Assembly (NCBI RefSeq): GCF_988242995.1
Contig: NZ_OZ547043.1
Direction: 5' to 3' (one strand)
DNA length: 64,000 nucleotides
Part shown: positions 3,245 through 13,542 of the stretch, piece by piece
How positions within the stretch are numbered: position 1 is the stretch's first letter
How the letters are laid out: every line of letters begins with the position of its first letter
Position numbers and translations under genes: made by a program
The notes under the pieces: generated by a model
What the model was told of the DNA's origin: nothing
Databases searched by the model: none
What the model saw: the letters and a program-made list of their open reading frames with translations, nothing else

Positions 3245-5692
3245 TTAACCGTCATGCATCATGCTGGCACGGGCGCGCGCACGTTTATCCCGCTCGTATT
3301 TTTCGAGCGCATCCTGTAACTGGCGGTCAAGCTGTGTCCCCGGCGCAGTACCGCCCGTCAGGTTGATGTGATATTCGTTTTTACTCTGGTCCACATAAGA
3401 GCGGCCAGCCAGTGCCGTGACTGGCTGATAAGCCTGATAGCCTGCATAAGAGCTGGTCGCCGGAATATAACCACCGGTGCCATACGTGGCGGCATGAGTT
3501 CTGGCGGCGGTCTGGTCAAGTGTGTCTGACTCTTTGTTGATGACCCCGAGCTTTTCCAGTACCCAGTCAATACCGCTGCGCAGTTTGTTGAACGCATTAA
3601 GCGGCAGCATCAACGCGTCAGCCAGTGCCTGCCCGAACATGACGCCCGTATCACGGCAACGGTTCAGGGTGTCCCGGGTGGCTTTGACCGGGGCAATCAG
3701 GTTTTTAAACCACTGCCACGCGGCCTGTAACTTTTCGCCCAGCCAGTCAAACACCGGCTTAAGTGGCGTGAACAGTTCCCCCACCGGCGCAAATGCCGCT
3801 TTCAGCCCTTCAACCACACCGCCAAAGAATGCGCTGACAGGCTCCCAGTATTTACGGATAAGTAACGCCCCGGCGACAATGGCGGCCACCACGGCCACAA
3901 CCGGCCAGCTAATCGCCCCGATGGCCGTCATAACAGCACTGCCAACCGTCGTGAAGATTGCTCCCATTGCGCCTGCTGCCGCGATGATGGCATTGATGCC
4001 GGTGATAACCGGCCAGGCTACGAGGCCAATGGCACCGATGACACCAATCAGCGCCAGTGCACCACCGACAATGATGCCGATGGTTGACGCCAGTGATTTG
4101 TTTTTCTGTATCCAGCCGTCGAGTTTTAACACATACTTTGTGGCCGTCTGCGTGAGCTTACGCAGTGCGCCTTCCTGCTGGTCAAACAGGTCAGTCCCCA
4201 CCGCCTCATAAGCGGACTGAAACTCCTTAAAGTCACCGCCGAGGTTGTCCTGCATGATATTTACCAGCTCGGCGGTCTTCCCGTCTGAGGCTTTAAACGC
4301 AGCGGTCAGTTTGTCCAGCTTTCCAGTTGAGGCGGCAGTCATCAGCACGGCGGCGGCTGAGCTGGCCTCCTCCCCGAAAATAGTTTTCATGTATTCAGCC
4401 TGCTGGGCAGTACCGAGCCGGTTTTTCTCAAAACTGGCCTGCATTTCTTTCAGAATGGTAAATACTGGTCGAGTATTCCCTTTACTGTCTGAGGTTTTCA
4501 CGCCAAGCTCTTTCAGTGCATCCCATGCTTTTCCCGTCGGTGCCTGCAGGCGGCTTAACACGGCACGGCTTCCCGTCCCCGCCATTGAACCGGTAATTTT
4601 TGCATCATGCAGCGCCCCGACCATTGCGGCGGTTTCTTCAATGCTGACACCAGCATTTTTTGCCACAGGTGCGGCATAGGTCAGCGCATCGCTCATGCCA
4701 TCAAAATCGGCGGCGGTTTTGTTCATCGTCATGGAGAGAACATCCCCGATATGAGCGACCTTATCGTTTGAAAGCTGAAAGGCGGATTTCATCCCCATCA
4801 GCAGGGCGGCGTTTTCTTCCATCGTGCGACGGTTCGCCAACGCCATATTCAGCGTGACCGGCGTTGCCGCCTGAATGGCATCAACATCCCCACCGGCTTT
4901 CGCAATAATAATCTGCGCACCGGCTGCATCATCTGCCGAGGCTGCGGTATTGTCGCCGAGCTGGCGCGCCTGCTTGCGTAGTGCAGCCATTTCGGCGGAG
5001 TCTTTTGCCACACCGAGCACAGCCTGCAATTCTGAGTTTTTCTGCGCAAACTCATAACCGGGCATCAGCAACTTAACTCCGGCCATCGTTCCCGCAGCAG
5101 CAATCCCCACACCGGCAGCGCCCACTGAGGCCATATTTCCGGCCAGTTCCTTTCCGGCCTGATAACGCTGTTTTACTGCGTTAAGTTTTGCCTGTTGTGC
5201 ACTGACACGCGCCAGCGCGTCACGCTGACGGTTAAGCTGTGCGGTGGTTTCACTGATACGGTTTTTCAGTCCCTGCTCATCATGTGCAAGATTGCGGGTA
5301 TTAATTCCCACAGCGGCCAGTTCCCGCTGCTGGCGTTTAATGGAATCTGTCAGGCGGTTATATTTCGCCTGTAAGTCCTCCGCCGCACGCTTTGCGGATT
5401 CCAGCACTTTCGCCTGAGCACGGGTCGGACGTTCAGTGTTTTTAAGCTGTGTGGCAAGGGCTTCGGCTTCCTGCCGTGCCTTTTCAAGTGCATGACCAGT
5501 CACGGCAAGCTGTGCGCTGGTCTTGCGAAATCCCTCAATACGGGATGCGTGACCGTTCAGCTCGCGCAGTGATTTTTGTGTTTCCCGGATATCCCCCGAC
5601 AGCGACTTACTCGCTGTGCGGATGGATTTAAACGGGCGGGATGCCTGGTCAACAGCCCTGAGCAATACCTGTAATTTTACATTGTTACTCAT
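3245..5692 (-). CDS. T: Tail tape-measure protein gpT
   Basis: 815 aa, Ala/Gly-rich coiled and hydrophobic segments typical of tape-measure proteins; P2 T position. Confidence 0.9.
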   Translation of the reverse strand: MSNNVKLQVLLRAVDQASRPFKSIRTASKSLSGDIRETQKSLRELNGHASRIEGFRKTSAQLAVTGHALEKARQEAEALATQLKNTERPTRAQAKVLESAKRAAEDLQAKYNRLTDSIKRQQRELAAVGINTRNLAHDEQGLKNRISETTAQLNRQRDALARVSAQQAKLNAVKQRYQAGKELAGNMASVGAAGVGIAAAGTMAGVKLLMPGYEFAQKNSELQAVLGVAKDSAEMAALRKQARQLGDNTAASADDAAGAQIIIAKAGGDVDAIQAATPVTLNMALANRRTMEENAALLMGMKSAFQLSNDKVAHIGDVLSMTMNKTAADFDGMSDALTYAAPVAKNAGVSIEETAAMVGALHDAKITGSMAGTGSRAVLSRLQAPTGKAWDALKELGVKTSDSKGNTRPVFTILKEMQASFEKNRLGTAQQAEYMKTIFGEEASSAAAVLMTAASTGKLDKLTAAFKASDGKTAELVNIMQDNLGGDFKEFQSAYEAVGTDLFDQQEGALRKLTQTATKYVLKLDGWIQKNKSLASTIGIIVGGALALIGVIGAIGLVAWPVITGINAIIAAAGAMGAIFTTVGSAVMTAIGAISWPVVAVVAAIVAGALLIRKYWEPVSAFFGGVVEGLKAAFAPVGELFTPLKPVFDWLGEKLQAAWQWFKNLIAPVKATRDTLNRCRDTGVMFGQALADALMLPLNAFNKLRSGIDWVLEKLGVINKESDTLDQTAARTHAATYGTGGYIPATSSYAGYQAYQPVTALAGRSYVDQSKNEYHINLTGGTAPGTQLDRQLQDALEKYERDKRARARASMMHDG

Positions 5693-6112
5693 TCGTGTTT
5701 CCGCTTCGCCGGAGCGCCTTTTCGCGCCATGTGATGAGTTCGGTCAGGCTCATGGGATACAGTTCTGATGGCGGCCAGTGAAATATCACTGCCACATCCG
5801 CCATCAGGTCATCGACCGAGAGATTTTTCGGGAACGTTACTGCACCGAGTTCGGCGACAAAAAACCGACCACCTTACCGGCCAGCGCCACAAGGTCAGGC
5901 AGTTCCAGCGCGGCGACTTCCTGCTCGGTCAGCATCGGTGCCGTCATGCGCGGCAGCACCTTAATCAGTGCATCGACTTCGGAGTTCGCGACCGCAGCCA
6001 GACTGACACCGCGCAGCGTCCCGGCATTAGGTTTCATCAGCGTGACCTGTTCGATAACCTGCTCACCACGCTTGACCGGATTGTCCAGGGTAATCACATT
6101 TTCTTTGTTCAT
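5685..6112 (-). CDS. E': gpE+E' product of programmed -1 frameshift (slip at TTTTTTG, + coords 5858-5864)
   Basis: Slippery heptamer T TTT TTG near 3' end of E; -1 frame stays open to a TAA at 5685-5687 overlapping the T start, giving 142 aa as in P2 E+E'. Confidence 0.7.
5837..6112 (-). CDS. E: Tail assembly chaperone gpE
   Basis: 91 aa, P2 gpE length and position. Confidence 0.85.
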   Translation of the reverse strand: MNKENVITLDNPVKRGEQVIEQVTLMKPNAGTLRGVSLAAVANSEVDALIKVLPRMTAPMLTEQEVAALELPDLVALAGKVVGFLSPNSVQ

Positions 6113-6168
6113 GGTTTTCTCACTTCTGAATCGGGGTTAACCGGTCAGCCAGGCTGACCGGATGAAAA

Positions 6169-6687
6169 TCACAGGCCGATATTGCGGCGGTGTTGCTCCA
6201 GCCGGTCGACGCCGTTCACCTTCTCAATCATGTTGATGGTGTCGATTTCGACCAGCTCCTTACCGTCCATCGTCAGCCGGAAATAGGTGCAGACCACGGA
6301 GATTTTCGACTCGGTGTCTTCTCCCTGTTTGCCCTCGCCGGTGTCGATTTCTTTCTGACGTCCACGCATGACCACCTCGACGGCCACCGTTTCGCCGGTA
6401 TCGTCGCGCTGGTAAGAGCCTGCAAAACGAATCGGTACGGAATCCACACCGGTTGCGGCGTAAAGCTCCCAGATAACCGAATCCGGGAAGCCACCGAGCG
6501 ACCACTCCATTGACAGCGCATCGTCATCAAGGCCGAGGTCTACCGGTGCGCTGCCGTTCATCCCCGCACCGCGATAGTTTTCGAGCTTACGGGTCAGTTT
6601 TGGTAGCGTGACGGACTTCGCGACGCCCTGATAGCTGTAGCCGTTCAGAAAGACGTTCATTAACTTGAGTTTGCGCGGCATTGCCAT
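6169..6687 (-). CDS. FII: Tail tube protein gpFII
   Basis: 172 aa, P2 FII length and position. Confidence 0.9.
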   Translation of the reverse strand: MAMPRKLKLMNVFLNGYSYQGVAKSVTLPKLTRKLENYRGAGMNGSAPVDLGLDDDALSMEWSLGGFPDSVIWELYAATGVDSVPIRFAGSYQRDDTGETVAVEVVMRGRQKEIDTGEGKQGEDTESKISVVCTYFRLTMDGKELVEIDTINMIEKVNGVDRLEQHRRNIGL

Positions 6688-8206: not shown

Positions 8207-8235
8207 TTGACCATTCCAATAAAATGAATTATGAT
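8207..8235 (+). promoter_or_regulatory. Near-consensus sigma70 promoter for cargo gene at 8258
   Basis: -35 TTGACC (8207-8212), 17-bp spacer, -10 TATGAT (8230-8235); followed by GGAGG RBS at 8247-8251. Confidence 0.45.
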
Positions 8236-8257
8236 AATCGTCAAATGGAGGTGCACA

Positions 8258-8902
8258 ATGATCAAACACACCGCAGCAGAAAGGGAAACCAACACTTCAG
8301 CTAAGCTGAATGAATACCAGTTGAACCTTCTGAAAAGAATTAACAACCTCGCTATTTCCCTGATGCCTGAATTTGAAGACAAAAACCAGGCAATTAATGC
8401 TATCACGCTGGATGATAGTTCACTGATGCAATTGCTCTACACCGTTCAACTCGAACAGAAGACTCGTGTCAATGACTACGAACTACGTAAAGTGCGCCGT
8501 CGTCGCGAAAATCTGGAACGATTTTATCGTGGGCTTCAGGAGTTAGGCGGTACGCTAAAGGTAAATGACGTGGTCGATATTCTTGGAATCACCCGCCAGG
8601 CGATCAACATTCGCGTTAAGAAGAACAAGCTTTTAGCATTCAAGCAGAACGGTGATTTTATTTTCCCGAAATTTCAGTTCACAGATAACGGGCTGATTCC
8701 CGGCTTTGAAGACGTAATGGCGGCATTTGACGAGAATACCCATCCAATGCTGAGGTTGGGTGTGCTGAAATCACCAATAGAGGTTAATAGCGAAGGCCTG
8801 AAAAAGACGCCGATTCAAATCATGCAGGACGGCGCTAAAAATAGTGAACTTAGTCTGGCTATCCGTGCCGCTAAACAGTTCGGAAATCATGTATCCAGTT
8901 AA
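8258..8902 (+). CDS. Cargo protein with HTH and C-terminal DUF2384-like (Xre/ParS/MbcA antitoxin-like) region plus a ~110-aa N-terminal extension of unknown function
   Basis: 214 aa from ATG 8258 with GGAGG RBS; HTH-like DILGITRQAINIRVKK; C-terminal HPMLRLGVLKSPIEVNSEGLKKTPIQIM resembles the toxin-binding domain of RES-Xre antitoxins; ~40% GC versus ~52% in flanking phage genes. Confidence 0.55.
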   Translation: MIKHTAAERETNTSAKLNEYQLNLLKRINNLAISLMPEFEDKNQAINAITLDDSSLMQLLYTVQLEQKTRVNDYELRKVRRRRENLERFYRGLQELGGTLKVNDVVDILGITRQAINIRVKKNKLLAFKQNGDFIFPKFQFTDNGLIPGFEDVMAAFDENTHPMLRLGVLKSPIEVNSEGLKKTPIQIMQDGAKNSELSLAIRAAKQFGNHVSS

Positions 8903-8913
8903 TTGTTTTAAAA

Positions 8914-8935
8914 AGAGGGGCTAGCCAGCCCCTCT
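8914..8935. terminator. Terminator hairpin shared by the convergent cargo genes
   Basis: Perfect stem agaggggc / gcccctct with 6-nt loop in the 38-bp gap between the two convergent stop codons; flanked by A/T runs. Confidence 0.5.
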
Positions 8936-8940
8936 TTGGT

Positions 8941-9651
8941 TTACATTGGTTCTGGCGTAATTTCGAATCCAAGCAGTTCTTCGAACATCTCTTCACCTGA
9001 CATCGTTCCTTTGTGCCACCCTTTAGGGAAGATACCTTCGTCATTTTCGATGTAACTGGCATAAGGCACCATCCCCTGAGGGGTATCGGTAAAGGCTGGT
9101 GTACTATCCGGTCGTTCCCAAAAGGCATAACAGCGTTTATAGCGTTTATGCCTTGAGGTATAGGCTATCCCGTCATAGTCACGCCCGAAATGTGTATAAA
9201 GATGTTCCATTAGCCATTGAGTAAAAGTGTAATCCTCGTTCTCTAAGCTATCCAAAGGAATATGTAACAACTCACAGAGCGCTACAACATCGATCACTTT
9301 CACTGGCCTCATGACATCCACAGAGCACATATAGTGTTGTGAAAGTACCGATTCAGGATAAGAAATCGTCCCTTCGAGATGGAGCAAACGCCCATAAGCT
9401 TCTGCCGCCGCCGTTAACGCAGAGTCAGAGGCATACCATACCGCCACACATCCCCCTGGGGGGTTGTATCGCCCACATTCATTTTCCTCAATTGGCGCTC
9501 TGAAGTTGATTGCGCTTTCATACAACGCCCTTTGATGACGCTTCAAAAGACCAGAGCCTGGTTGAATGTCAATCGCCGGAATACGTCCAGATTTATTTTT
9601 TGCAGCAATTCCTTGTGCAACAATATTTTTTTCAAATGTCCATTTGGTCAT
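8941..9651 (-). CDS. RES-domain protein (predicted NAD+-targeting toxin-like effector)
   Basis: 236 aa from ATG 9651 with AAGGAG RBS; motif ECGRYNPPGGCVAVWYASDSALTAAAEAY resembles the RES-domain core (GGRWNPP...YLADS...E in MbcT/ParT-type toxins); candidate Ser in GIAYTSRH; low GC. Confidence 0.6.
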   Translation of the reverse strand: MTKWTFEKNIVAQGIAAKNKSGRIPAIDIQPGSGLLKRHQRALYESAINFRAPIEENECGRYNPPGGCVAVWYASDSALTAAAEAYGRLLHLEGTISYPESVLSQHYMCSVDVMRPVKVIDVVALCELLHIPLDSLENEDYTFTQWLMEHLYTHFGRDYDGIAYTSRHKRYKRCYAFWERPDSTPAFTDTPQGMVPYASYIENDEGIFPKGWHKGTMSGEEMFEELLGFEITPEPM

Positions 9652-10345
9652 TTTTACTACTCCTTCTATAAACAGATTAAGCCATAGGCTCCTCTCCATA
9701 TTGATTGAAAATAATCCCTACCGTGCTTGCCCGGCAGGGGGTATGAGAACATGTGTATCTCAATCTCGATTATACCAAGCAAATTTTCTATTTTTCGGAA
9801 ATTTAGAGAGTTTTTTTAATGCTTCGCATGCCTTCTCGATGTATTGATGGGGCTGAAAAGAAGAAATAACGCAGGAAGTTTTACGGAAAGGAGAACTATA
9901 AAGATTTTTTTCAAGTGAATTAGAAATAAGAACTTCGCAGGATACTGCATTTTTAGTGAAGATGGGTTGAGTTTCTCAGCAAGAGTCCCGCGAGAGCCGT
10001 ATTGACAGCATGCATGACTCGGAGATTATTCCCCATGCAGGATGGTACACCAATGCAAGAGTTGGTTTACGCAAATGATTGGATGATCGCGATTACCGAC
10101 CGTACATTGCGCAAATAACGTTCTGCGTCGATGCTATTAAGATGCCCCGACCACACCGTACGACGGACGCCGTAGTGATCCGAGCTTAAGAATAGATAAT
10201 CTTTTCTCTCCGGATTCACCGTTCGCAGTGCGTTTTCCATAGCTGTCGCAAGCACAATACTTCCGCTACAGGCACAGAGCGGACTGTCAGATTAGGTTTT
10301 ACTCTGTGCCATAGATGAGTAATCTCACACCAGATCTAATACGAT

Positions 10346-10924
10346 TTATTGTGGCATTTCAGGCCATTCTATATCCGGAGCATCTTCCGGCTGAACGCGA
10401 TTCAGTAGCACACGGTATTTTTTCCAGTGTGTCAGGCTTAACTTTTCTTCCTCGGTAGCCATATCTAAATCGACAGCATCCTGCAGCGTGGCAATAATTT
10501 CACCTGCATATGCAATCAGCTCTTTCTTCTGAGAGTCAGCCGCTCTGACAAGCGCATCACGCTCTGCATTCTCATCATTCACCCACGCATTTCCGTTCCA
10601 TTTCTGATAATCCCCATCCGGGGAAATGGCTGTCACGTCTGGAGGTAATGCGCCAAGTTCAGAAATATAAATGGCTGCTCCCGTTTTCGTTTCGTAGACA
10701 GTCTTTCCGCGATGATCTTCCATCAACTCCCATTTTATTTCATCTGCATTGAAAACGGCTGCATAACCAGCCGGTATATCAGGCGGCGCAATATCTGTAC
10801 TGTTTGCAGGCAGACCTGTATACGGTGGAATATACGCGTCACTTTCCCCAATAAATTCATTGGTTCCATCAAGTAAATTAAATACGCGGATAGTTTGTGC
10901 TTCTGCACTCATTCTGAAAGCCAT
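10346..10924 (-). CDS. G: Tail fiber assembly protein gpG
   Basis: 192 aa, directly downstream of H with overlapping stop/start, P2 G position. Confidence 0.85.
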
Positions 10925-13542
10925 TATGCAAGCCTCACAATATAGTTAAATGCGATGTTTTTTACGGTATTTTCTGTATTACCTGTAGCATTAACGGTAA
11001 TAGAGTGCCCGTGTGAGCCAATAGCAACCGTGTGTGAATGTGCACCAATACCAACAGTATGGTTATGTGCTCCAATGTCGACTGTATGTGCATGATTGCC
11101 TGATGAACTTGTAGTCGTAGCACCTTTATCACTTCGCGGAACACCATAATCTGCACCGCCTGATTGCACGCTCACAGCAAAACCGACGGTATGTGTATGA
11201 TTGCCAGAAGTATTGGTTGATTTTGTGCCGTGGTTAAACGTACTGACTGTTTTTGTCCCGTAATCAAATGAACTGGTTGTTTTCGTTCCCAAATCCGTAT
11301 TTGACGCACTGGCGCTGTGAGTATGCGATTTAATCCCGTCCTGTTCCTGTGACAATACGGCACGCCCACTGGCAGGTTTGCCCTTGATTGTCCAGCCGCG
11401 CATATCAGGAATAACACCTGAAGGATAGGCAACAGCCAGTTTCGGATATGCAGCCTTATCAAACGTCTGCCCCTGCATAATTGCATAGCCCGCAGGTGGT
11501 GTATCTGATGGCCACGGCAACGGAACACCTGGCGGAAACGCTTCAATATCTTTCGTCCCGTCAAACGTTACGCCATTAATCGCCCTTGCCGTTTTCAGCT
11601 TTGTAGCTGTAGCCGCATTGCCGGACAGTTCGCCTGAAAGACCGGCGCTGAAGGTTTGTTTCGCCGCCCATGTCTGAGCTTCGTCGATAATTGGCACACG
11701 TCTTGTCGTGATCGTGCGGCTTCCCGGATTTCCTGAAATACGCACCATAAAAAAGCGGTAGTTCGCTTTACTTACAGTGCTGCGCCATACATGCATTGAG
11801 CGCCCAGTACCGGAATCATCACTCGGACCAACTGCGATGTTTATCAGGTTGCCATCAATGACGCCCCAGTCCATACCGTCGGGAATATTGGTCATGTTAT
11901 CAAGCCGAACGGTTATCAGACTGCCCGGCACAAAGTCGTGGGTCTGCCAGTCCAGGCTGGTGAGTTTTGCCACTGCACCGCCGATACCCAGATTCAGGGG
12001 AAGTGAATACGAGGTGTAGACTTCCCGCCATTCGCTCCACGAGCTGCCGGTATAGACGCGCTCAAACGTGCGACCTTTAAGGGTTGCACCTGTTCCGGCA
12101 GTTGTATAACGCTGCCATACGTTAACACCATCAAAGCGCCTCAACACTTCCAGAATACCGAGGACTGTCACGCCGTTTCCGTCCAGTATTGGACCGTTGG
12201 TCGCTTTACCTGTAACGCTGTAAATACCTGGTGAAGTCACATCATTCAAATCCCCGTCGTAATAACGACTCTCTGACTGATGACCGACTCTTAACCACGG
12301 TTCCCACTGCGGATTTGATGCATCCCAGCTTGCCGCAAGGCAGCGGACATACATATTTCCACGGCGAGTGGTATAACGTTGCGTTCTTCCATAATTCCCG
12401 CCTTCGAGGATCTCAAGCGTCCCCTGAGCAAAGCCGCCTTCCTCTGGATAATTGCGTTCATATGAAGCTATAGCCGAGCTACTGTTACGCCATAAACCAA
12501 GATGTTCGGCGGCTCCAAGCGTATTCAGGTCTATAGTCGTACTCAAAGGGCGGGTAGCTGATTGAGTGTGACGCCATACGCCCCATGGACCATCAGTACC
12601 ATTCCACTGATTGGCGAGTTTACGCATGTATACATTGCCGTCTCTCGTGATAAAGCGTTGCGTGCCTGCAAAATTGCCGGCAGCAAAAACCTCAAGCACA
12701 CCGACAGCATTATCTTCCGGGAAATTTTTCTCCAGTGTTGCGTTAGTTGAGGTAGCTTTAGACCAGATCCCCAGATAAGCCTTAACGGGACCAAATGTAT
12801 TCAGATCAGCATCAACCGGCATTTCGCCGTTGTTTTTCATAAACGTCAGGCTGGTAACGCCAACATTGTCCAGAAAAGCGTCCTTATCTGGAATATCGCC
12901 ACCGTTCTGGTCTTTCTGCAGACGTTTCTCAGCATTGTCATAGGCTGCTTTTACTGCCTTTGGCGTTGCCGCCAGCTTTTCACTGGTGCTGTTTGTTGCA
13001 CTGCTTAACTGAGTAAAACCTTTTTCTGTCAGCGTGGCGTCAGGATGGCGGCGGGACTGCTCATGCTCTGCGATTTTGTCATCGACGTAATCCTGCGTCG
13101 CCATCACCGTGCTGGCATCAATACTCAGCTCAACGGACGCCACGTTGCTGAGAATAATAACCATGCGGCAGGTCTGCGCACGTCCGGAGCCTTCAGCCAG
13201 TTCTGGCTTATAGCTTTCTGCCATGTTGGATACCGCAATCAGTGTTCCGGCATCGTCATACAGACCAAGCTCACGCATCCAGAAGCCGCCCACTTCGGGC
13301 GGTACAACCAGTTCAGCCACGATATAGTTTTTATTCTTGTTATCCACGCTGACTTTATTCAGAGCGTGACGCCAGACCTCATGCACCAGTTTCGTCTGAC
13401 CGGCATCCGGCACCGGCAATTTGCCATTACCGTCACCCACGGCCATTGCAGACAGGTTTACTTTTTTCCCGCCGGGGACAGTGGCGGCTGCCAGCTTTGC
13501 GGCTCCGGCAGTAGTGATAACGGTTTTAAATTTCGTGCTCAT
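10924..13542 (-). CDS. H: Tail fiber protein gpH (long variant with His-rich C-terminal repeats)
   Basis: 872 aa; N-terminus P2 H-like; C-terminal region has repeated HxH motifs ([34 protein letters not shown]). Confidence 0.85.

Follow-up and report, generated by a model that had tools for sequence, protein, structure and literature searches.

The window analysed here is a stretch of 64,000 nucleotides from contig NZ_OZ547043.1 (NCBI RefSeq assembly GCF_988242995.1), and it contains a P2-like prophage with the tail fibre gene H and the gene G (Table 1). The surrounding prophage has the complete P2 gene set, replication and integrase genes among them, at 96–97.5% identity to isolated phages of the genus Peduovirus. 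The genes nearby (I, J, W, V, FI and FII) follow the P2 order. The neighbouring RES gene pair gave no match to PADLOC or NCBIfam. G lies directly downstream of H, and its start overlaps the H stop (TAATG). The H protein matches the Pfam families Phage_tail_fib, Phage_fiber_2 and Collar. The lengths reported in the initial annotation (872 aa for H against 669 aa in P2, and 192 aa for G) agree with the open reading frames and with the P2 record (NC_001895), in which H has 669 aa and G has 175 aa. Ninety-seven complete genomes of E. coli carry H and G with a nucleotide identity of about 97%, and the H architecture is also present in a named Peduovirus, P2_4A7b. H of this complete P2-like (Peduovirus) E. 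coli prophage is very probably a mosaic tail fibre, in which a P2-type end is followed by a shaft with knob-like repeats and by a collar-needle-tip module of the T4 gp37/lambda Stf type.

Table 1. Genes G and H and the parts of the H protein, with positions in the window
Feature	H residues	Position	Strand	Basis
Gene G, 192 aa, lambda Tfa/T4 gp38-type tail fibre assembly chaperone		10346..10924	minus	PF02413 Caudo_TAP, E=3.3e-40
Tail fibre gene H		10924..13542	minus	ORF, 872 aa plus stop, between P2-type I and G genes
P2-type N-terminal module	1–204	12931..13542	minus	85% identity to P2 H residues 1–204; PF12571, E=3.7e-57
Phage_fiber_2 repeat, conserved linker, first mosaic junction	170–210	12913..13035	minus	PF03406, E=2.4e-21
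Knob-like repeat R1	237–330	12553..12834	minus	R1 vs R2 40% identity, E=1.9e-23; AF2 pLDDT about 70–84
Knob-like repeat R2	329–424	12271..12558	minus	similarity to R1; AF2 model and its PDB matches
Third, diverged knob-like repeat R3	421–516	11995..12282	minus	weak similarity to R1 (E=0.036); AF2 pLDDT about 64–84
Shaft domain	517–632	11647..11994	minus	kept in relatives and in the distal subunit of T-even JK23
Conserved linker motif ([29 protein letters not shown]), second mosaic junction	633–666	11545..11646	minus	66% identity to a Chlobot Stf stretch
Collar domain (T4 gp37 D10, residues 811–881)	667–738	11329..11544	minus	PF07484 Collar, E=2.1e-10; 2XGF alignment
Ascending stem strand of needle, HxH 740/742 and 782/784	739–784	11191..11328	minus	maps to T4 882–931; His 98.5–100% conserved
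Variable tip subdomain, predicted receptor-contact surface	785–810	11113..11190	minus	maps to T4 932–959
Descending stem strand, HxH 817/819, 826/828, 835/837 and 844/846	811–855	10978..11112	minus	maps to T4 960–1009; His 72–100% conserved
C-terminal strand back to collar (…[11 protein letters not shown])	856–872	10927..10977	minus	maps to T4 1010–1026

Module boundaries and the shaft of H

H and G share with P2 gpH and gpG the gene order I-H-G and the strong similarity over the N-terminal module of H, which, by analogy with P2, probably attaches the fibre to the baseplate. In contrast, BLASTP detects no similarity between P2 H and H beyond residue 204, and the two proteins are unrelated from this point on; the C-terminal region of H is thus not colinear with P2 H. 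P2 H contains a Gp34_trimer domain, lacks the Collar domain, and has only 6 His residues in total, none of them in an HxH motif. The Phage_fiber_2 linker at the first junction also matches the Mu/P1 S fibre and lambdoid Stf, and the homology to T4 gp37 starts at residue 663, within the second linker. The amino-acid differences between H and its counterpart in E. coli strain AR_0089 bunch at residues 189–221 and 652–665.

The extra length of H relative to P2 H is accounted for by residues 226–652, which share 58% identity with the distal fibre subunit of a T-even phage and include knob-like repeats. It is proposed that this region forms a shaft with three knob-like repeats, and that some T-even phages have such a shaft in their distal half-fibre proteins. 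A self-BLAST of the shaft gave no off-diagonal matches, whereas pairwise BLAST of the excised repeats did, and the most diverged repeat (R3) has the same DLN...LEV...QRYTT...W..W motif as the others. The AF2 model of the shaft is usable only for the three repeats (pLDDT about 60–84), with pLDDT falling below 50 across residues 510–662. In a Foldseek search with this model, the best PDB matches were the fibres of the R1 and R2 pyocins, 6cl5_A and 6cl6_A (E=2.6e-6 and 5.3e-6, at a TM score of only about 0.2). Relatives of H are named "pyocin knob domain-containing protein" by NCBI, and no NCBIfam or Pfam model for a knob domain matches H itself. The shaft sequence also gave no match in searches against the PDB, Pfam (E up to 10) and NCBIfam.

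The T4 gp37-type tip and its HxH motifs

The initial annotation had proposed comparing the C-terminal region with T4 gp37-type tips. A phmmer search of the PDB returned 2xgf_A with E=1.8e-77, aligning H residues 664–872 with residues 24–242 of the chain, which is the entire crystallised construct, and BLASTP places the identity between the two tips at 65% over residues 663–872. The PF07484 Collar match, at residues 672–719, lies above the gathering score. The limits of the collar, needle and tip given in Table 1 were taken from the description of the T4 structure (PMC6957217) and mapped onto H by alignment. Similar to T4 gp37, H possesses the collar, the two strands of the needle, whose HxH motifs are in register, the C-terminal [11 protein letters not shown], a variable tip in the same place, and a homologous chaperone gene (gp38 in T4) directly downstream. 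The module is carried by a P2-type fibre in H, not by a T-even distal half fibre of 1026 aa. The C-terminal end YIVRLA is found in 118 of 150 representative homologues; the tip forms the extreme C-terminus in 147 of these 150, and 144 have no HxH motif upstream of it.

H contains six HxH motifs, all within its last 133 residues: KSHTHSA (His740/742), GNHTHTV (782/784), GNHAHTV (817/819), GAHNHTV (826/828), GAHSHTV (835/837) and GSHGHS (844/846). At least five such motifs had been noted initially within positions 10924–11250. All five of the quoted heptads are present, and the count rises to six with KSHTHSA, which lies just beyond that interval at window positions 11317–11325. In 10,000 shuffles of the H protein the mean number of HxH motifs was 0.53 and the maximum was 5. 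As the observed number exceeds this maximum and P2 H has no such motif, the clustering is real and not due to chance. The last 140 residues hold 13 of the 22 His residues of H. At the DNA level, direct repeats among the His boxes, which could have pointed to substrates for recombination, are weak: a single pair of 34 nt shows 79% identity.

The His residues are conserved among homologues. Across 138 diverged representatives, with overall identity down to about 55%, five of the motifs are 98.5–100% conserved. The remaining motif (817/819) is 72% conserved, equal to the fraction of tips with the shorter 2+3 needle, and is missing only from the shorter-needle class; the lone His771 is conserved in only 3%. 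The distances of the six motifs from the C-terminus (133, 91, 56, 47, 38 and 29 residues) are exactly matched in 8 other representatives, and the last three motifs occupy a fixed register (−47, −38, −29) in nearly all of 139 tips compared.

In the crystal structure of the T4 gp37 tip (2XGF), HxH motifs coordinate seven iron ions (PMC6957217). The six motifs of H align with six of the seven in T4. By homology to 2XGF, three H chains would intertwine to form a six-stranded needle, and each motif, contributed by three chains, would place six His side chains around one buried metal ion, which is iron in T4. Six metal rungs are predicted for H in contrast to seven in T4, because H lacks a counterpart of T4 His915/917 and has five residues fewer in its descending strand. 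The initial proposal that such motifs coordinate metal in the receptor-binding tips of other phage fibres holds for the homologous T4 tip, with the important distinction that the T4 metal sites are buried structural rungs and not receptor contacts. The T4 His residues are needed for folding of the needle, while the receptor contacts reside in a tip subdomain that is free of His (PMC6957217).

The equivalent of T4 residues 932–959, the receptor-binding tip subdomain of gp37 (PMC6957217), coincides in H with the stretch that varies most. Conservation among the 138 homologues falls to about 0–30% at residues 785–812, which is the only such drop. The insert of 26 residues that separates the ascending strand from the descending one (residues 785–810) would form the distal pole of the fibre, and, as the predicted receptor contact, it would therefore set the host range. 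The sequence of this subdomain is unlike those of T4, lambda, P2_4A7b and phiNP. Characterised members of the T4/lambda tip family bind OmpC or the LPS core at the cell surface. The AF2 monomer model of the tip (43-sequence alignment) is poor (pLDDT 61, pTM 0.33), as expected for an intertwined trimer. With this model Foldseek returned 2XGF first (E=8e-17, TM 0.31), a result that is driven by sequence and adds nothing to the sequence match.

The chaperone gene and exchange of the tip among phages

Aligned over its full length, G shares 65% identity with lambda Tfa; the figure for T4 gp38 is 32%, and G is thus nearer to lambda Tfa than to the T4 chaperone. G also matches phrog_105, the PHROG family listed for gp38 in the T4 record. 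In comparison with P2 G, similarity is restricted to the last 70 residues (123–192, 46% identity), since P2 G has a different N-terminal domain. The PF02413 match spans residues 72–192, and for the N-terminal part of G only lambda Tfa and T4 gp38 can be aligned. It is proposed that G, translationally coupled to H, folds and trimerises the tip as a Tfa/gp38-type chaperone. Its lambda-Tfa-like N-terminal part probably arrived with the tip module, and its C-terminal part would be the conserved chaperone core that is also present in P2 G. The structure of Mu Tfa is reportedly the basis for these domain roles, with a conserved C-terminal chaperone and an N-terminal domain that varies to suit the fibre tip. 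In T4, gp37 also requires the general chaperone gp57A (PMC6957217, PMC3157838).

The initial annotation had suggested a host-range module swapped relative to P2. The C-terminal region of H does not align with P2 H, its His residues are conserved and homologous to those of 2XGF, and G is of the Tfa/gp38 type; therefore, the fibre tip and its chaperone have been replaced relative to P2. The extent of the swap had been underestimated, as everything after residue 204 or so is exchanged and not just the tip.

Similar modules are found on several types of tail. The tip of lambda Stf (orf-401/orf-314, with orf-194 as Tfa) is 74% identical to that of H in a four-way alignment. In contrast to H, lambda Stf has eight HxH motifs, a far longer tip insert, and the different N-terminus of a siphovirus side fibre. 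The T4 version of the tip is regarded as derived from a lambda-type module of temperate phages (PMC3157838). H also resembles the "T4- and lambda-based RBP family" of Magaziner and Salmond 2022, which includes ORF6/ORF5 of Citrobacter phage phiNP (PMC9659904). As in that family, a conserved distal module of about 215 aa diverges in the specificity region, and a gp38/Tfa-like gene of 184–207 aa, a range into which G fits, lies immediately downstream of the fibre gene. phiNP matches H at 74.5% identity; its ORF6 is a separate protein of 282 aa, whereas in H the module is joined to a P2 H-type N-terminus by a long shaft with knob-like repeats. The phiNP receptor (LPS GlcII) is not transferable to H because the tip subdomains differ. 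The named Peduovirus P2_4A7b (LR595887, tail fibre of 874 aa) shares the architecture of H throughout, with 77% identity in H, 98% in G, and an identical needle and HxH motifs, but differs in the knob repeats and tip subdomain (residues ~241–520 and 786–812), implying a different receptor specificity on the same scaffold.

A near-identical tip is that of the lambdoid Escherichia phage Chlobot (PP925838), whose Stf differs from H by one amino acid over residues 727–872, including the tip subdomain, at 95–99% nucleotide identity. The 19 synonymous-only codon changes that accompany this single substitution indicate purifying selection. In contrast, Chlobot Stf is an 1107-aa lambdoid side fibre with another N-terminus and shaft, its collar shares only 81% nucleotide identity with H, and between its Tfa and G the identity is no more than 65%. 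A literature search found no paper on Chlobot, and consequently no receptor can be transferred from it. As the similarity links a P2-type myovirus fibre to a lambdoid siphovirus side fibre and extends to neither the adjoining collar nor the Tfa, we tentatively suggest that a needle-plus-tip cassette (residues ~727–872) might move between phages without the chaperone and as a smaller unit than the recognised module of ~215 aa, although the odds are somewhat against it. If such a cassette does move alone, the chaperone would read the conserved needle or collar and not the specificity loop, and the 26-residue tip subdomain would define a receptor specificity that is as yet uncharacterised and could serve on both types of tail.

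Alternative readings and significance

Several other accounts of H and its His motifs were considered. The region is repetitive, consisting in part of GxHxHTV heptads, and could be viewed as a compositional or low-complexity accident of a fibre tail rich in Gly, Ser, Thr and His, with no specific role for the motifs. This view has a negligible chance of being correct, as it is effectively refuted already by conservation: the His residues are maintained across the 138 representatives while adjacent loop residues vary freely. The excess over shuffled sequences, the fixed register from the C-terminus, and the binding of iron by these His residues in the homologous crystal structure (PMC6957217) likewise argue against it. 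A second view grants the motifs a metal and makes that metal the ligand, with fibre iron acting as bait for a host siderophore receptor (a "Trojan/Ferrojan horse") and not as a structural element, an idea that has been discussed for HxH-bearing fibres (PMC11705849). It appears extremely unlikely for H, given the folding role of the His residues and the His-free receptor contacts in T4 (PMC6957217). The variable and presumably specificity-determining stretch of H is also free of His, and the HxH motifs stay the same from tip to tip while the loops change, which fits a scaffold and not a ligand.

The T2 and T6 gp38 proteins and Mu Tfa can remain bound at the fibre tip. Receptor binding might thus reside in G, retained on the fibre as an adhesin, with the HxH needle serving as its docking site only; the gp38 adhesins of most T-even phages do stay on the fibre (PMC3157838). 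However, G is of the lambda Tfa/T4 gp38 chaperone type and not a T2-type gp38 adhesin, and in T4 it is the gp37 tip itself that binds LPS and OmpC (PMC6957217). The pairing of a nearly identical needle and tip with a far more divergent Tfa in Chlobot also points to H as the seat of specificity, making an adhesin role for G very unlikely. It is similarly improbable that the prophage is cryptic and H decaying or without function, a view suggested by RefSeq/PGAP, which annotates the 97%-identical gene in AR_0089 and several other genomes as three "incomplete" phage tail protein pseudogene fragments. The AR_0089 reading frame is in fact uninterrupted (872 aa, 22 substitutions, no stop), and in strain 1217KP the gene is annotated as a single 872-aa CDS. 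The mostly synonymous needle changes relative to Chlobot and the complete gene set of a prophage so close to isolated phages further argue against decay.

The favoured reading of H as a mosaic fibre with a replaced tip describes a real and functional-looking case of ordinary host-recognition module swapping between phages. That P2, lambda, Mu/P1 and T-even phages trade tail fibre tips and the chaperones for them has been known since the 1980s–90s. The family to which this module belongs has likewise been described (PMC9659904, PMC3157838), and the general understanding of phage fibres is unchanged by the present result. What changes is that H gains a correct functional label, where RefSeq has just "phage tail protein" or, for certain strains, the pseudogene fragments noted above. 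Importantly, the likely determinant of host range is narrowed to 26 residues (785–810), which is useful where the host range of fibre-retargeted particles or P2-like phages is to be predicted or engineered.

The fibre locus and its prophage setting

The tail fibre gene H and the adjoining gene G, which encodes a Tfa/gp38-type assembly chaperone, belong to a P2-like prophage with genes for replication, cox and integrase. Its host can be named from the yeh operon within the window, which is 98.5–99% identical to E. coli genomes. The gene order around H and G is that of P2 (V, W, J, I, H, G, an accessory-gene or cargo slot, FI, FII), and H and G occur in 97 of 5426 complete E. coli genomes at ~97% identity and coverage of at least 80%. 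The H stop codon overlaps the G start codon in a TAATG at 10922-10926, which suggests that fibre and chaperone are translationally coupled. An additional 130-aa ORF runs in another frame across the coding sequence of collar and needle; no evidence marks this ORF as a gene, and it is probably a by-product of regional composition.

Features of the fibre locus (window positions and residues of H)
Feature	Window	Strand	H residues	Remark
Prophage	roughly 1160-33500			96-97.5% identical to isolated Peduovirus phages
223-aa ORF	8231..8902	plus		accessory-gene (moron) slot between G and FI
RES-domain protein, 252 aa	8941..9699	minus		Pfam RES, E=1.5e-12
G	10346..10924	minus		ORF, 192 aa, downstream of H
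H	10924..13542	minus		ORF, 872 aa
Needle + tip, Chlobot comparison	10927-11364		727-872	Chlobot 4181-4618
Collar, Chlobot comparison			667-726	
130-aa ORF	11172-11564	minus		
Distal difference cluster	11548-11589		652-665	probable junction
Proximal difference cluster	12880-12976		189-221	probable junction
Tandem duplication	12271-12834		237-330, 329-424	40% identical, E=1.9e-23
Collar			667-738 + 856-872	pairwise alignment to T4
Stem			739-784 + 811-855	pairwise alignment to T4
Tip subdomain			785-810	pairwise alignment to T4

P2 carries Z/fun in the slot between G and FI, whereas the prophage described here has a convergent pair (8231-9699), the RES gene and a 223-aa ORF without a match in Pfam, NCBIfam or PADLOC, separated by a strong hairpin at 8912-8937. 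The same pair occupies this slot in E. coli AR_0089 (NZ_CP032265), while E. coli 1217KP has an AAA ATPase and a DUF4435 protein instead. The slot looks like a variable site for defence or toxin cargo.

The initial annotation described H as longer than its P2 counterpart, and the length that it gave for P2 H, 669 aa, agrees with NC_001895, in which P2 G has 175 aa; the extra 203 residues are due to a longer shaft and a 210-aa tip. Likeness to P2 H is limited to residues 1-204 (85% identity). A Phage_fiber_2 repeat, also present in Mu/P1 S fibres and lambdoid side tail fibres (Stf), spans residues 170-210. Residues 226-652 share 58% identity with a 'large distal tail fiber subunit', that of Shigella phage JK23 (T-even type), and match phrog_1699, the PHROG family to which the T4 record assigns gp37. 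This shaft contains a tandem duplication, with a third, diverged copy at residues 421-516. In an AF2 model the three repeats have moderate confidence (pLDDT about 60-84), and the part beyond them is poorly predicted; among PDB structures the model comes closest to the fibres of the R1 and R2 pyocins (E=2.6e-6 and 5.3e-6, at a TM of about 0.2), in accord with the NCBI name of relatives, 'pyocin knob domain-containing protein'. The repeats may thus have a knob fold. Shaft relatives in databases are mostly labelled 'partial', no listed relative of either tip or shaft reaches 770 aa, so that all are shorter than H, and genomes with any part of H and G have such parts in a median of 2 places. Assemblies seem to break often at this gene, as its modules recur in co-resident prophages.

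The collar-needle tip and its histidine motifs

A PDB-wide sequence search matched H, from residue 664 to its last residue, with the crystal structure of the T4 gp37 receptor-binding tip (2XGF, gp37 785-1026, E=1.8e-77), and the two tips are 65% identical by BLASTP. Residues 672-719 match the Phage Tail Collar domain of Pfam. The T4 limits, namely the D10 collar (811-881 and 1010-1026), the stem (882-931 and 960-1009) and the tip subdomain (932-959) (PMC6957217), were carried onto H by pairwise alignment. In T4, the needle contains a series of seven iron ions coordinated by HxH motifs, whose histidines are required for function (PMC6957217, PMC11705849); surface residues of the tip subdomain are needed for LPS and OmpC binding (PMC6957217).

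Six HxH motifs occur in H (His 740/742, 782/784, 817/819, 826/828, 835/837 and 844/846), and none in P2 H. The five listed by the initial annotation are the last five of these; the first, at 11317-11325, lies just outside the range it assigned to the cluster. T4 gp37 has seven such motifs in its tip region (at 883, 915, 929, 966, 980, 989 and 998), six of which are kept in register in H. The equivalent of T4 915/917 is absent, with a lone His771 near its site. Both needle strands are shorter than in T4, the ascending one by 4 residues and the descending one by 5, and by analogy the needle of H would be one metal rung shorter.

Every protein in a set of 1.84 billion 50%-identity representatives was scored with HMMER, without a word index, giving 1679 tip matches at E<=1e-3 and 253 at E<=1e-30. 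Among the best 150, the module reaches the last residue in 147, no HxH lies upstream of it in 144, and the tip holds five motifs in 42 proteins, six in 36 and seven in 55 (maximum 10). When 138 of these tips were aligned with the query in MAFFT, conservation was 100% for His 740/742, 835/837 and 844/846, 99% for 826/828, 98.5% for 782/784 and 72% for 817/819, the last value reflecting a shorter class (41 of 139 tips) with only three descending-strand motifs; His771 is conserved in 3%. The last three motifs stand at -47, -38 and -29 from the C-terminus in nearly all of the 139 tips, and the whole register of the query (133, 91, 56, 47, 38 and 29 from the C-terminus) is identical in eight other representatives. 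The sole poorly conserved stretch, residues 785-812, coincides with the T4 tip subdomain. Neither of the findings that the initial annotation named as contradicting its reading, colinearity with P2 H and unconserved histidines, was obtained, since similarity to P2 H ends at residue 204 and the histidines of the motifs are 72-100% conserved in the 138 tips. The tip family is present in 681 phage records, spanning Peduovirus, lambdoid, T4-like and Felixounavirus phages.

The chaperone and exchange of the tip cassette

G is a Caudo_TAP protein (Pfam) that aligns with lambda Tfa from end to end at 65% identity; it is 98% identical to the G of P2_4A7b, a named Peduovirus (LR595887), and about 32% to T4 gp38; likeness to P2 G is confined to the last 70 residues (46%). 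In Mu Tfa, binding to the tip of the fibre is reportedly the task of the variable N-terminal domain, and oligomerisation that of the conserved C-terminal one. With H unlike P2 H beyond its N-terminal part and G lambda-Tfa-like throughout, the proposal of a host-range module swapped relative to P2 is supported. The size of G and its position directly after H also fit the gp38/Tfa-like gene of 184-207 aa that lies directly downstream of the receptor-binding protein in a described family (PMC9659904).

Amino-acid differences between H and the 97%-identical H of AR_0089 cluster at residues 189-221 and 652-665. Both clusters fall on the conserved linker motifs at either end of the shaft, where recombination probably took place. 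A further boundary lies near residue 727, inside the ~215-aa module, as comparison with the lambdoid phage Chlobot (PP925838) gives 95-99% nucleotide identity beyond this point, 81% in the collar, and 65% amino-acid identity between G and the Tfa of Chlobot. Codon changes relative to Chlobot Stf are 19 synonymous-only and 1 amino-acid-changing in the needle and tip, against 12 and 10 in the collar. These identities and codon changes indicate that a needle-plus-tip cassette under purifying selection has been transferred between the fibre of a myovirus and the side fibre of a siphovirus. In P2_4A7b, the H scaffold is the same and the tip subdomain different.

Proposed function and alternatives

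H is very probably a trimeric fibre in three functional parts. The P2-type N-terminus would dock to the baseplate, the shaft with its putative knobs would give reach, and the collar-needle tip would fold with help from G and offer residues 785-810 to the receptor. Homology, conservation, synteny and the pattern of selection are observed, while trimerisation, the bound metal and the receptor are inferred; by analogy with T4 the metal would be iron, with six buried His6-metal sites stabilising the tip.

Chance composition is an unlikely source of the HxH cluster, which is real: 10,000 shuffles of H gave a mean of 0.53 motifs and never more than 5. It is likewise improbable that H is a decayed gene. 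RefSeq annotates the AR_0089 orthologue (3579-6197 of the extracted locus) as three 'incomplete' pseudogene fragments, and the pattern 'phage tail protein (x3)' recurs in several other complete genomes; since the AR_0089 ORF runs unbroken through 872 aa, with 22 substitutions and no internal stop, and the same pattern recurs elsewhere, the mosaic protein has probably misled the annotation. Iron in the fibre is unlikely to serve as bait for a receptor, and G is unlikely to be the actual adhesin.

Kinship of the T4 and lambda tips has been known since 1983, a lambda-like phage being considered the source of the T4 version (PMC3157838), and a 2022 paper described the tip family together with its linked chaperone (PMC9659904). 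H and G are an ordinary, already described case of tail-fibre module exchange, in support of the reading in the initial annotation. The needle-tip cassette may travel independently of collar and chaperone and carry an uncharacterised receptor specificity.
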